IMG/VR virus record: IMGVR_UViG_2740892488_000014
Origin: a virus
Taxonomy: Duplodnaviria; Heunggongvirae; Uroviricota; Caudoviricetes
DNA: 30,859 nucleotides
Reading direction: 5' to 3' (one strand)
Part shown: one piece after another, positions 514-7,584 of the stretch
Numbering within the stretch: position 1 is the first letter of the stretch
Layout of the letters: each line of letters starts with the position of its first letter
Notes under the pieces: model-generated
What the model was told of the DNA's origin: nothing
Databases searched by the model: none
Seen by the model: only the letters and a program-made list of their open reading frames with translations
Position numbers and translations under genes: made by a program

Positions 514-1784
514 CTCGGTGGCCAGTTTTTGTTGACCACTTCAATCACAGCCTGTAAGGGCAATGGCGAGTAAGAGTACTGAGTATTTTAATCTCATGAA
601 TTCCCTTTAGAGTAAGGATTGGTTTTTAAGACGCGGTCTGTAATCAGTCCCGAGAGCTACAGTAAACAACGCTGAGCACTGAACGCATCACAGGTAAGGT
701 AAAAGGTGATATCGGCAAAGGCTGTGAAACCTTTAATTCAACAGATGGGAACGGTATGCGCAGGATCCTGTAACGACGCTCCCAAAACCGGAAACCTGTA
801 AGGCATGTTTTCGCTGCTGAACTTAATATACGAACCTGCACTATCATGAACATATTTTATATCGTTATACCCCGAGTGATTGTGCCCGGCAATGGATAGT
901 GTCCTGGAGGAACTATTTCTACTGTAAAAGGTAGATATTTAATTTCAGTTTTGAATTATTCCCTGCTGTTAATAACAATGGCTGTATATGGCACCGAGTA
1001 GGCATTTTTTCGCTTACTGAAGGGCAGCTGTGAGCGAGGAACAGACTTTCCCTACTTCGTTGAGAGTACACCTAGTACAATCAAGGCTAAATGATAAAAA
1101 TATACAAAATATCATATTTATGATATATATAATGGCATTAATCTTATTCTTGGATTACGTTGAAAGGGTAATATTATATTTGTGTAACATAGTTTAGATA
1201 ACAATGCCGTTATGGGGGGGGAAAGACATTTCAACATATTAGCTTTGTATCTAACGCTCATGTAGATCTCGATTTTGAACTTAAAGAACAATTATTTTTT
1301 AGAGAGCAAGGTATTTTTGGGGAACAAAAACATAAAGTAATGGAGAGAGGAGAATGTATCAAAAAATCATCGATTTAATTTAGATTGTCCGTATAGTTGG
1401 GGGTAAGTCGAATCGCTGGGCTACATGGAATATTGTGTCAAGTAAAAATATATTTCAATCTTGCAATAACCGATTGTTGAAAATAATGTCAAATCTTAAT
1501 GGTGAATGGGGAGAATATAATAAACATGAGTCGATATTATGCAAATGGATTTAAATATTTTATACCCGAAGACATAGGGTTTCGAGAGTTCGATGAGACT
1601 ACTTTGAATGCTTTCGAATTTGCTGGCTAAAACATATAGGTTATATCTTACATCTGTTTGTAATGGAGCGTAGATGCGACAAGCTACACCATAATAATCA
1701 TATTATGATATATTGTTAAGTTGTTATGGCATTAAATAAAATTATGTCATTTTGTTAACCAAGCAAGAATCAAAGGACTTTTAG

Positions 1785-2099
1785 ATGGGTACGGCATTAA
1801 TTTCAAGCTTTATTAGTGGTGCAATAGCTATAATCTCTATTGCTATATCTACTTATAATCAGAATAGAATAAACAAGCTCAATGAATCACTGGATGTAAG
1901 GAGAAAACATCAGTACTATATTGAACCGTTAATTCGCTCAGCTTCAGACTTACAAAGCCGTATTTATAATATATTAGAATTGGGGTTCATTGAAGAGTTT
2001 TATCATAATGGGAATAAGCGCCAACAAGATTATGTTATCAACAATACTGTTTTTTCTTTTTTTCCCAGTTTTTTGCATGGACAGAAGCTGCCCGCATAG
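1785..2099 (+). CDS. hypothetical small protein with N-terminal hydrophobic helix (AT-rich islet)
   Basis: 104-aa ORF with AAGGA Shine-Dalgarno about 8 nt upstream of the ATG; N-terminus ISSFISGAIAIISIAIS is a predicted transmembrane segment; no recognisable family. Confidence 0.3.
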   Translation: MGTALISSFISGAIAIISIAISTYNQNRINKLNESLDVRRKHQYYIEPLIRSASDLQSRIYNILELGFIEEFYHNGNKRQQDYVINNTVFSFFPSFLHGQKLPA

Positions 2100-2136
2100 A
2101 CATTCAATACCTTAGCCTAGAAAAAAAATAAAAAAA

Positions 2137-2352
2137 ATGAGGGAGTTTATTAGATTACAGAACAATATTAACTCATTAATCCAAACAGACGTCTTTGGTC
2201 AGTATTTTATGTTTTTCATAGGAGAGCAGAGAGCTATTGCAGAAAAGATGCTGATATCAACAGATACTGGATTTGATTGCATAGGTTACGGCAGTTTCAC
2301 AAAGGAAAATTGCTTTATCAATGAGCCATTTTTTTTTAGATTTAAACAATGA
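2137..2352 (+). CDS. hypothetical small protein (AT-rich islet)
   Basis: 71-aa ORF co-directional with 1785-2099, followed by a 41-codon ORF (2364-2486) and then the hairpin at 2673-2706; the ATG sits in an A-run with no clear RBS. Confidence 0.2.
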   Translation: MREFIRLQNNINSLIQTDVFGQYFMFFIGEQRAIAEKMLISTDTGFDCIGYGSFTKENCFINEPFFFRFKQ

Positions 2353-2672
2353 AGTGATAAATATGACAAGAGATATCGGAATTTATAAAGAAAGGCTAAT
2401 CAGAATACAGCACGCGTTAATCGATTTAATTAATTTTCTTGATCCTGGCATGATTCGATTTGACGGAAAAAAATATGGAAAAATATAACCCAGATGATTC
2501 GTATCAAGGTAAGTTGCTATATGTATCAATTTAATTATGGTTGGGTGAAATTTATGTTAATAGTAGCGGAGGGTTAGTTAAAATATGCTCTCAGTGATTT
2601 TTGGATAGTTCTTTTATTTATCATTGAAAGTAAATATGTATAGCTTCAAGATTTACAAGTGAATCTGTTTAT

Positions 2673-2706
2673 TGACAGTCCGCTTATGGCACAGAGCGGA
2701 CTGTCA
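2673..2706 (+). terminator. intrinsic-terminator-like hairpin closing the plus-strand small-ORF cluster
   Basis: Perfect 11-bp inverted repeat TGACAGTCCGC / GCGGACTGTCA with a 12-nt loop, followed by TATTAAATTT. Confidence 0.4.
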
Positions 2707-2904
2707 TATTAAATTTGGCTCCACGCCATAGATGTGTCAGCTCATATCTTATCTAATACACACAATAACTTTCTCATTCTTGGAGAATTATTTTTTTAAG
2801 GGTAGGTGTTGACGTTAGAGCAAAAGAATGGTGATTTTTTTGATGTGTATTACGTTGGAACTGATGGGAATAACTATCTGTTTTCAACGCACTGCTAATT
2901 TATC

Positions 2905-2950: not shown

Positions 2951-3557
2951 TTACTTGCGTTTAAAAAGGTATTTTGTCACGACCAGCACGAGGCCGAATA
3001 CCTCTGTCAAAGTACCGCCCATGTACAACTGTAGTGTTAAATCCTCAAATTCCAGCTTACCTGCGCCGTCGGCAATAAATACACCATTCATTATCAGAAG
3101 TTGGAAAGCAAGGATAATCAGGAACCATTTCCCGTATCGTTTTTTTAGAGCGATTTCTGCTTCAAAATCTTTGTTGTTGAGTTGTTTGCGCTCATGCTCG
3201 GTATCAAGTGAATTCACCTGTTTCACAGATGTGAACTCGGTCAAGATTTTACTCTCAGTACGGGTGACTTGTTGAGAGGGTGTAGCAGTTGGAATTCTTT
3301 TGCTAGACGCAGCTACAGCCATTTTGCGAGCTTCGGCAGCTCTTTTTCTGGCTATTCCGCGAATACGGACAGCCGTTTTTTTTGGGGGCGTGCGAAACCT
3401 TTGGCTGAGGTGAAGCTTCGTCAGGAGACTGAACCGGAGTTTCATCGTCCTCCGGCTCAACCTCTTCTGCTAACTGACGGTGTAGGTTGAGGGAATCCTT
3501 CAGTCTGCGTGCTACTTCCTGTTTGAAACGGCTGTTAAAATCGTCATCCGATGGCAT
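2951..3557 (-). CDS. hypothetical membrane protein (acidic N-terminal region, two C-terminal TM helices); frame change at a homopolymer
   Basis: Two overlapping minus-strand ORFs (3303-3557 and 2951-3460) switch frame at the T8 run 3376-3383; the upstream part of one and the downstream part of the other read as protein, the remainders as junk. C-terminal hydrophobic stretches WFLIILAFQLLIMNGVFIA and LTEVFGLVLVVTKYLF. Starts 9 nt after the ImmA stop. Confidence 0.4.
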
Positions 3558-5699: not shown

Positions 5700-5727
5700 G
5701 GGTCTTCCCCGATCATGGTGGGAAGAC

Positions 5728-6948
5728 TCAGTACGCCATATTCAGTTTCCCATAGTGGAACATAACTCCCAGTTTAAAGCGTTCCCGGTTTCGGTATCCC
5801 CTGGCCTTTATCCTCAGCAGTCTGATCTTGCTGTTCAGCGCCTCCGCATTTCCATTCGAGACGCGATGACGCATTGCATTCAGTATTCCGTATAACCGTT
5901 TTTTAATGGTTTTCGCTGCGTTTTTCATCATCGGCACATCACATTCAGACGCCAGCGATATCCACTGCAACCAGTCATTCCTGCGTTCTGTGCTCCAGGG
6001 GCGATCCCAGATATTTTTTGCCAGCTCTTTCAGTGTCCAGCACTGGCTTGTCTGTTGCATCTGTTCCCGCAACCACATCAGCTTTTCCTGCCGGGACTCA
6101 GTCATCCATTTGTCGCTGTACTGCCACAGGAAGCGGGTACCTTTGGCCTGACGACGACTTTCAACAGGGAGGTGCGGATGTTCATTCTGGCGGGTTTTAT
6201 CAACCACTTCGCCCAGTTGCTTCGCCACATGGAAGCGATCGAAGGCGATTTTCTCGACCGCATTGGGTAAATGGATACGCGCTGCTCTTATATAGCCCGC
6301 ATTCATGTCCATCGACAGTGTTTTGATGGCCAACAACTGACTGTCAGTAAGCGAACGGAGATAGCTGGCAAGACTCTCTGTGCCACGATCATCGGTTAAT
6401 GCCAGTGCCCGCCCGTCGCGATCAGATACCACGGTTATATACCTATGCCCTTTTTTAAAGGCGACTTCGTCTACATTCATATGACGCACTGATAAAGGCT
6501 TTTTAATCCGCGACAGGCCTCGCTTAACCGCGCGGGTCATGATGCCGTCAACGGCATTCCAGCTAAGTTTAAGTTGTTTTCTGACCGCATCAACGGTGCT
6601 GATTTTAAGCCATGAGAGCACGAACGATTCGAACAGCAGAGTGTACCGACTGCCGGAACCTGCCCACGGTACAGGCAGAGTCTGGCAGCCATGCTCCGGG
6701 CACATAACGCGGGGAACATCGGCTTCTACTAATGTCATGAACTGGCAGGTATCAAGGTGGCGCCATTTACGATGTCGGTGATCGTGAACAGAACAGGATT
6801 TCCTGCAGGTCGGACAGGTTAACTGAGTATTTTCAGCAATTCCGACTGTAACAGTAACGGAACCTGCATTTTCATCGAGGGTAAGGGATTTAACCTGCCA
6901 TGGTGCAGTCAGGTTAAGGATATGGGCATAGAGGGATTTTTCGTCCAT
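5728..6948 (-). CDS. ISL3-family transposase
   Basis: 406-aa ORF with an N-terminal Cys/His cluster (CPTC…C…H) and central/C-terminal region (…VDEVAFKKGHRYITVVSD…FDRFHVAKQL…) matching ISL3 transposase architecture. Confidence 0.85.
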   Translation of the reverse strand: MDEKSLYAHILNLTAPWQVKSLTLDENAGSVTVTVGIAENTQLTCPTCRKSCSVHDHRHRKWRHLDTCQFMTLVEADVPRVMCPEHGCQTLPVPWAGSGSRYTLLFESFVLSWLKISTVDAVRKQLKLSWNAVDGIMTRAVKRGLSRIKKPLSVRHMNVDEVAFKKGHRYITVVSDRDGRALALTDDRGTESLASYLRSLTDSQLLAIKTLSMDMNAGYIRAARIHLPNAVEKIAFDRFHVAKQLGEVVDKTRQNEHPHLPVESRRQAKGTRFLWQYSDKWMTESRQEKLMWLREQMQQTSQCWTLKELAKNIWDRPWSTERRNDWLQWISLASECDVPMMKNAAKTIKKRLYGILNAMRHRVSNGNAEALNSKIRLLRIKARGYRNRERFKLGVMFHYGKLNMAY

Positions 6949-6966
6949 ATAATTTCATTCTGAAGC

Positions 6967-7485
6967 TTACTTTAAACTGATATTATTATTTTTTGCCCAC
7001 TTTCTTAATCTTCCATTAGCGTTGGCGTAAGGCGAAGATGTGTTAAATGAGATCATTCTCCCCATCGTCCATTTTGTGTACCATGGTCTTCCATACAAAA
7101 TATCATCGGTACGATCATTAATAAGGTTCACAATCTCATTTTTTACAGTCTGAAGTTCAGCTACTAACAACTCATAACTTAACTCACTGTAATCTGAGTA
7201 AAATTTTTGAGCAAGAAGGCCAAGCTGATTCCATTTATAGCCAGTTTCCGGAAAATCGACAGGCAGACCTTTAGCATCAGAAGCGATCCACTTTACAACA
7301 AGAGCATTCCATCCAAGCAGATACGAAACGAGATCACGAACACTCATCTCCGTTCCTTTGGCGTGTCCGTCCATTGATTTATCTGAAGTAATTTCTGGTG
7401 GGATTGTGTTGAGGTAACTAATTAATTTACTAAAATTTTTATCAATAGCTAAAAGCAGTTCAGCTTTTGTTTGCGGCACACTCAT
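6967..7485 (-). CDS. ClbS/DfsB-like (DUF1706) four-helix-bundle protein, passenger inside the ISL3 element
   Basis: 172-aa ORF; motifs GHAKGT, LVSYLLGW, FPETGYKWN, LAQKFY, YGRPWYTKWTMGRMI and FNTSSPY match my recollection of this family; lies between the transposase gene and the right inverted repeat. Confidence 0.5.
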   Translation of the reverse strand: MSVPQTKAELLLAIDKNFSKLISYLNTIPPEITSDKSMDGHAKGTEMSVRDLVSYLLGWNALVVKWIASDAKGLPVDFPETGYKWNQLGLLAQKFYSDYSELSYELLVAELQTVKNEIVNLINDRTDDILYGRPWYTKWTMGRMISFNTSSPYANANGRLRKWAKNNNISLK

Positions 7486-7584
7486 AAGAATTCCCTCTCA
7501 TGTAAAAAGAGACACCATAAAGGTACTGTGTGGTGTTTGAAAATCGCTCAATTATGTACCACCCACCACAACAGGGGAAGACCC

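Follow-up and report, generated by a model that had tools for sequence, protein, structure and literature searches.

The AT-rich islet near the start of a 30,859-nucleotide (nt) viral sequence (IMG/VR record IMGVR_UViG_2740892488_000014, Caudoviricetes; this whole stretch is hereafter the window) is a 1.9-kb cargo segment, or "moron", that occupies a variable slot in a lambdoid prophage of the ST131 type. The anatomy of the cassette within it is near-certain: the remains of a nuclease-like gene are followed by a single live gene encoding a 232-amino-acid (aa) protein that is anchored in the membrane at its N-terminus. An anti-phage role for this protein, judged from homology and genomic context, is close to an even call. 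Taking anatomy and function together, we narrowly favor a reading in which the islet is a cassette with a dead nuclease gene and a live membrane-anchored gene, whose product would act alone, expressed in the lysogen, as an anti-phage effector of the abortive-infection or exclusion type.

A preliminary description of this DNA, made from its letters only, had proposed an AT-rich islet of foreign origin, and its composition is clear: the G+C fraction is 0.327 between positions 999 and 2928 versus 0.488 in the remaining window, with a trough of 0.32–0.33 from ~1000 to 2750 (500-nt windows) and values of 0.40–0.58 elsewhere. Boundaries were set by comparison with Escherichia coli RM10042, whose lambdoid backbone (locus L009) matches window positions 544–998 and then again from 2929 onwards. 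Since the shared flanks end at 998 and resume at 2929, the islet spans 999–2928 and sits in a variable cargo slot, where RM10042 instead has a gene of the GIY-YIG nuclease family along with two small hypothetical ones (L009, 5400–7500). In RM10042 and in the window, the slot is flanked by an LprI-family gene on one side and by a 606-bp hypothetical gene and an ImmA/IrrE pair on the other. The segment thus shows both the composition unlike flanking phage DNA that is expected of a moron and residence in a slot that holds differing, non-essential cargo in related prophages, at the RM10042 lambdoid slot as well as at the Z/fun position of P2-like prophages. The lambdoid slot itself may be a cargo or defense hotspot of the RM10042-type prophage family. 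At its left, window positions 1 to ~560 contain the 3′ portion of a transposase gene (ISEc52, IS3-like) together with the end of that element; the LprI-family gene, which E. coli EC958 has at this place, is reduced to its last ~55 nt (544–597), the insertion sequence having truncated it in this strain.

The three small plus-strand open reading frames (ORFs) from which a gene cluster had been proposed do lie where the preliminary description placed them (1785–2099, 2137–2352 and a third ending at 2488), but they are no cluster; they are fragments of one gene (1785–2488, plus strand). At the corresponding locus, EC958 is annotated with one 699-bp coding sequence (CDS) for the hypothetical protein WP_000536231. 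Over 8.4 kb, the window differs from EC958 at 10 sites, each of which is one additional base in an A/T run of 6–9 bases, with no substitutions. Five of these surplus bases fall inside the CDS (in runs 2050–2055, 2057–2063, 2121–2128, 2130–2137 and 2329–2337), and removing one base per affected run returns the reference 232-aa protein exactly. No genome among the 453 E. coli genomes compared exceeds 99.8% identity to the window, which makes the surplus bases a private feature of this assembly. Private single-base gains in A/T runs are the signature of homopolymer over-calling, and the three-ORF appearance is an assembly artefact. Five further surplus bases relative to EC958 occur in A/T runs of 6–8 bases at 3376, 3836, 4848, 10024 and 10087; those beside the islet break up two genes, the 606-bp hypothetical one and that for the ImmA/IrrE metallopeptidase, and further ones affect genes beyond. 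Over-calling of long homopolymers appears to affect the assembly as a whole. For annotation, this means that at least 10 over-called A/T sites break genes in the window and that small-ORF "clusters" there are suspect.

Comparison of the locus across genomes, which had been put forward as a check, located the region in 453 of 5,426 complete E. coli genomes (~8%), in each case chromosomal and for the most part in ST131 strains (e.g., EC958 and JJ1886), with different cargo in the RM10042 slot. Much of the islet proves to be a mobile cassette (1027–2760, plus strand) common to P2-like prophages, in which it occupies the Z/fun locus. It is 85.8% identical at the nucleotide level to the deposited Z-region of P2-EC58 (AJ512683) and equally close to a copy in the GDAR2-2 P2-like prophage, where it stands between the tail sheath and tail-fiber assembly genes in opposite orientation to both. 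A third version (loci L012–L014) retains ~74% identity over window positions 1038–2701 and resides in an AlpA-type island. The suspected foreign origin of the islet is accordingly upheld, and its horizontal mobility shown, by this 1.7-kb cassette in the P2-like Z/fun locus and by the other cargo in the RM10042 slot. Z/fun is a recognized defense locus of P2 (PMC13586616), and the cassette connects two classical cargo sites, P2 Z/fun and the lambdoid slot.

Upstream of the live gene, the preliminary description had pointed to an ORF-poor stretch with a G8 tract at 1214–1221, both of which are present (no ORF exceeds 57 aa between ~850 and 1785), and had suspected one or two genes fragmented by indels that accurate reads might correct. 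A broken gene is indeed there, but it is not a product of read error, as the lesions are identical in EC958 and >400 other genomes: window positions 600–1784 are the same in all of these and never carry an annotated gene. Its identity emerged from L012–L014, whose transmembrane (TM) protein shares 85% identity and in which the corresponding upstream DNA has two plus-strand frames of 74 and 93 aa. These fuse upon addition of one A to an A6 run, and the joined 150-aa product finds end-to-end matches to 1,551 database proteins of ~150 aa (58–87% identity). Intact relatives possess the alpha-beta-beta-beta-alpha-beta core and D...(D/E)xK motif of PD-(D/E)XK (restriction-endonuclease-like) proteins, and no Pfam, NCBIfam or PADLOC model matched the 150-aa family. 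The window copy (1212–1630, plus strand) is broken: alignment of an intact member to positions 1220–1615 (tblastn, E = 2.4e-20) meets four in-frame stops, and the invariant VECKSHRW segment is missing through a deletion, and with it the ExK motif-bearing strand and the catalytic core. The G8 tract occupies codons 2–4 and leaves the ATG at 1212 out of the homologous frame; G9 or G6 would restore that frame for 55 codons only. Because the identical broken sequence recurs in >400 genomes, with four in-frame stops and a lost core, this stretch is a true pseudogene whose damage is biological and which better reads will not mend.

In the third cassette version, the PD-(D/E)XK gene (L012, 5356–5840; also L013 and L014) is nearly intact, with a single A6-run frameshift common to three independent assemblies, and nuclease-gene inactivation in this lineage may be separate from that of the decayed copy carried by the window and P2-EC58. 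Two other accounts of the upstream DNA were set aside. For the 1.2 kb without ORFs, a noncoding RNA or retron-like element was considered; this DNA has no Rfam match at E ≤ 1 and no meaningful tandem or direct repeats, and the idea was abandoned upon the pseudogene finding; a degraded reverse transcriptase (RT), an idea prompted by a match of the live protein to the PADLOC model RTasTM (see below), gave way to the remnant of the 150-aa PD-(D/E)XK gene.

The live gene, by comparison, is well preserved. Window and P2-EC58 agree at 94–99% per 100-nt block of the CDS, whereas the pseudogene region is 70–84% identical with indels, and ratios of nonsynonymous to synonymous substitution (dN/dS) for the CDS are 0.25, 0.14, 0.12 and 0.13 in four comparisons. 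These values indicate that the TM gene is maintained under purifying selection while the upstream gene drifts.

The preliminary description had also anticipated a membrane-anchored accessory protein with an N-terminal TM helix, and residues 3–23 of the corrected product are its sole strongly hydrophobic segment. The following 22 residues contain five K/R versus two D/E, from which, by the positive-inside rule, the conserved domain would lie in the cytoplasm. Profile searches and structure prediction, which had been recommended for corrected ORFs, returned full-length matches to PHROG 5606, a family without assigned function, matches to RTasTM, and a helical-bundle model. Specifically, the AF2 model (pLDDT 87) has a continuous helix over residues 3–65 that leads into a helical bundle with a small beta-hairpin, ~190 residues extending beyond the TM part. 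No Pfam or NCBIfam family covers the protein, and its public label is "lysogenic protein" only, copied from the P2-EC58 record. With a cutoff of E ≤ 1e-3, an exhaustive profile search recovered 1,904 cluster representatives, of which nearly all are 230–280 aa long, and the family occurs in 268 species genomes from Proteobacteria, Acidobacteriota, Cyanobacteria, Actinomycetota and others. In the family alignment, a variable N-terminal TM helix and linker precede the conserved motifs EPLxRAAxDLQSRxYN, AQFFAWTExxRxxIQ, FxGEQRAIGE, CxGYG and LQxALxDLxxFLDP; 23 residues are invariant, the polar ones including D55, Q57, S58, R59, N62, E100, R103, E146, Q147, R148 and D218. A K+-channel-like filter was considered for CxGYG and set aside, as this motif sits in the cytoplasmic beta-hairpin without flanking TM helices. 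Rare long members (P0128, 557 aa; P0130, 622 aa) carry a C-terminal extension with weak NAL1_N matches (E = 2.7e-5 and 1.6e-4, below the Pfam cutoff), and the sole PDB sequence match of the family profile, a non-significant one, is 9pno_A, a "trypsin-like serine protease" (E = 0.96); these matches could hint at a protease partner.

Candidate expression signals surround the live gene. The AAGGA ribosome-binding site that had been noted is present at 1773–1777 (plus strand), 7 nt before the ATG at 1785, and alignment shows this Shine-Dalgarno sequence to be kept in all three cassette versions. Further upstream, TTGTTA-18-TAAAAT (1713–1742, plus strand; 9 of 12 consensus matches) is a candidate promoter. 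Downstream, a perfect hairpin occupies 2673–2706 (plus strand) as first described, with a stem of 12 bp rather than 11: positions 2673–2684 pair with 2695–2706 across a 10-nt loop, and seven of the pairs are G-C. A terminator scan flagged the hairpin as terminator-like (tail TATTAAATTT; 5 T in 8). It is kept in P2-EC58 and GDAR2-2, and L012 retains just the inner GTCCG/CGGAC stem. We consider it probably the intrinsic terminator, or the transcript 3′ end, of the live gene. The "inverted repeats" annotated in P2-EC58 reduce to this hairpin and, at the cassette's left edge, a single arm-like copy that the window does not conserve. A second hairpin, AAGGCCC-TTTGATCA-GGGCCTT, read from the sequence at 2905–2926 and unflagged by the scan, lies at the right edge of the islet just beyond the end of a convergent minus-strand gene, whose terminator it could possibly be.

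A link to known defense systems comes from remote homology. The window protein matches RTasTM weakly (E = 1.8e-5), all 46 aligned relatives match it as well (best E = 1e-10), and 35 match a second RTasTM model. Genes for UG1 and UG5-large RT-nitrilases are often accompanied by a TM protein, of clusters 85 and 1858 (Mestre et al. 2022, PMC9226505), and an "RT-nitrilase + 1TM" system from a P4 hotspot of E. coli E101 has been validated, with the TM protein called an effector (Rousset et al. 2022, PMC9122126). Both RTasTM models have the E101 1TM sequence, taken from Table S2A of PMC9122126, as their archetype (E = 5e-164), and hhalign comparison of the live family with this sequence gave a probability of 95.6% and E = 1.3e-8 over 118 columns of conserved core. 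The live protein therefore has the size (232 aa), the one N-terminal TM helix (residues 3–23) and, distantly, the sequence homology of RTasTM proteins. The RT-nitrilase neighbor itself is missing: no RT lies near the gene in the window, in EC958 or in the Pfam-annotated contexts, nor beside it in any of the ~90 loci examined, and among 80 genome loci neither an RT nor any other gene recurs as a partner. Given homology to 1TM and no RT nearby, the live protein is a solitary paralogue of the RT-associated TM protein, outside DRT systems, rather than a DRT component.

In Proteobacteria, most neighborhoods of the gene are mobile or rich in defense genes. The Providencia homologue lies in a P2-like remnant beside AAA_15 and DUF2971 genes; that of Lysobacteraceae comes directly after SIR2+HerA; that of Lonsdalea quercina (L108, 3715–7729) closes a P2/186-like prophage, overlapping the integrase stop codon directly after an AAA_15+DUF4435 pair (PARIS-type); and that of Erwinia has an integrase fragment and a RelE pair nearby. 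From cargo-slot residence, purifying selection, homology to a defense component and such neighborhoods, we infer a solo membrane-anchored anti-phage effector. We hypothesize that the live gene would be expressed from the prophage in lysogens, where its cytoplasmic bundle may sense a phage-derived cue; the TM helices would then oligomerize and compromise the inner membrane, so that the protein could work alone in abortive infection or exclusion, with the upstream pseudogene as presumably inert baggage that travels with it. A toxin or abortive-infection function, already guessed at in the preliminary description, is plausible for the membrane protein, and homology to the 1TM partner of RT-nitrilase defense systems makes that guess somewhat stronger.

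A number of observations weigh against this reading. Identity to E101 1TM is ~21–25% only, a distant, superfamily-level relationship, and the role of the homologue is itself ambiguous, the RT-associated TM protein being dispensable in DRT11 and reported required in DRT1 (PMC13436386). Fold searches with the live protein returned just generic helical bundles. Few sequenced phages carry the gene, which turned up in 1 of 50,697 records and in 7 IMG/VR contigs, and a literature search by the protein's accessions found no paper citing them. As for expression, promoter-like sites in the region do not exceed the shuffled expectation in number, and the T-tract of the hairpin is interrupted. Lastly, many environmental homologues (Acidobacteriaceae, Heliomicrobium and Blastocatellia) show lineage-conserved chromosomal synteny with housekeeping genes, which is untypical of defense cargo.

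This last observation leads to the alternative that best survives, namely that the family serves the cell in some general, membrane-associated way unrelated to phages (stress sensing or envelope regulation, for instance), in which case the prophage copy would be a passenger conferring some other benefit or none. The conserved synteny in Acidobacteriaceae and other groups includes a hemB-like gene and carboxylase subunits, a further homologue (L011) lies among metabolic genes, no partner gene is found, and the fold resembles four-helix-bundle sensor domains. We nevertheless hold a cellular role to be unlikely, as the Enterobacterales and Lysobacteraceae contexts examined are nearly all prophage, island or defense neighborhoods and the only characterized relatives are components of anti-phage systems.

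Alternatively, the protein could be a superinfection-exclusion factor that acts at the inner membrane, stopping incoming phages at DNA entry or an early step and leaving the cell alive, like single-pass proteins of other prophages. The fun(Z) gene of P2 confers resistance to another phage. This precedent in the same slot, at a locus named in PMC13586616, speaks for exclusion, together with the single-pass build of a protein encoded in the P2 Z/fun slot, its prophage location, and the orientation opposite to the flanking late genes in P2-like prophages. The positive-inside rule, on the other hand, assigns the conserved domain to the cytoplasm, and entry blockers are usually periplasmic; no homology links the protein to the Z/fun product of P2 itself, P2-EC58 being its sole match among phage records; and the family spans phyla, across which a phage-specific entry block is unlikely to stay conserved. 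We regard non-lethal exclusion as improbable on these grounds.

It is very improbable that the cassette was once a two-gene system of nuclease and membrane protein, of which the nuclease is dead and the membrane gene is now a non-functional remnant. The nuclease-like and TM genes are adjacent and co-oriented in three cassette lineages, and the nuclease gene of L012 is nearly intact, as such a history would have it. Elsewhere, each family is solitary: intact 150-aa nuclease-like genes occur without the TM gene in three contexts (Yersinia, E. coli TA054 and metagenomes), TM genes occur without the nuclease gene in >80 loci, and a 71%-identical TM homologue has the CDS alone in common with the cassette. 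Purifying selection on the TM gene, moreover, persists after nuclease decay. These contexts exclude an obligate nuclease+TM pair and, with the upstream neighbor being a pseudogene, leave no toxin-antitoxin pairing here; the conserved adjacent partner expected of a two-gene toxin-antitoxin or abortive-infection system is absent. In E. coli TA054 and relatives (L022–L024), the intact 150-aa PD-(D/E)XK gene lies just 3′ of a UvrD-like helicase gene, a Cap4_nuclease-domain gene and a 550-aa unknown gene, an arrangement that looks like a defense island. Finally, the literal first reading, with three separate small toxin or abortive-infection type ORFs and upstream genes broken by read errors only, has a negligible chance of being right and can be dismissed: the ORFs are present in the window as given, but correction of five bases yields exactly the single 232-aa protein of >400 genomes, and the upstream lesions are identical across independent high-quality assemblies.

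If the favored reading of the live protein as a solo anti-phage effector holds, it can be extended, tentatively and with considerable doubt on our part, to the family as a whole: each solitary RTasTM-like protein would be a sensor-effector that defends against phages autonomously, from a single gene, and together they would be the free-living form of a membrane module recruited by RT-nitrilase (UG5/DRT1) systems, with a prophage copy fixed in >400 sequenced ST131-type E. coli genomes. Were this true, they would constitute a new, widespread single-gene defense family and give a hint at the role of the TM partner in DRT systems. The live gene is in any case an experimentally tractable, RT-free relative of the RT-nitrilase membrane protein; should its product give no phage protection, it would be one more prophage gene of unknown function.

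Elsewhere in the window, a ~1.9-kb segment (5700–7584) is without counterpart at this position of EC958 and contains a minus-strand 406-aa transposase-like ORF (5728–6948), which may be ISL3-like, and a 172-aa ORF (6967–7485), also on the minus strand.

Among known systems, the upstream pseudogene comes closest to small PD-(D/E)XK nuclease-like proteins, namely XisH-like 2okf, AF1548 and the CdiA-CT / Tox-REase-5 toxin domains, from all of which it differs in that the gene is dead in the window, with four stops, a start out of frame and the ExK strand deleted. For the cassette as a whole, the known counterpart is P2-EC58. There, ORF1, labeled "putative lysogenic protein" (AJ512683, CAD54907), corresponds to this very gene (tblastn protein identity 92%; 94% nucleotide identity over the CDS) within the same cassette, upstream pseudogene and downstream hairpin included. 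The P2-EC58 copy lies between tail genes of a P2-like prophage, whereas that of the window is in a lambdoid prophage, and the P2-EC58 record leaves the upstream pseudogene unannotated. Neither the cassette nor its ORF is consequently new, having been deposited as P2-EC58 ORF1 with the protein already grouped in PHROG 5606; new relative to the database records and papers examined are the PD-(D/E)XK pseudogene, the occurrence of one cassette at both a P2 Z/fun locus and a lambdoid slot, and the relationship of the solitary family to the 1TM partner of RT-nitrilases.

The closest counterpart of the live protein is E101 1TM (pFR76; UG5-large; PADLOC RTasTM; related to Drt1b of DRT type 1). At 229 and 232 aa, respectively, E101 1TM and the live protein each have one N-terminal TM helix in the same position, and each is encoded in a cargo hotspot of E. 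coli temperate elements. The motifs Y-x-I-x-x-T-x-F-x-x-x-Q-F/Y-F-x-W, EQ-x-x-IGE and C-x-x-Y-x-x-F are common to E101 1TM and the live family; the RT-associated protein does not conserve the N-terminal invariant motif of the live family, EPL-x-R-A-A-x-DLQSR-x-YN. The solitary family, which spans many phyla, is also much larger than the RT-associated one.

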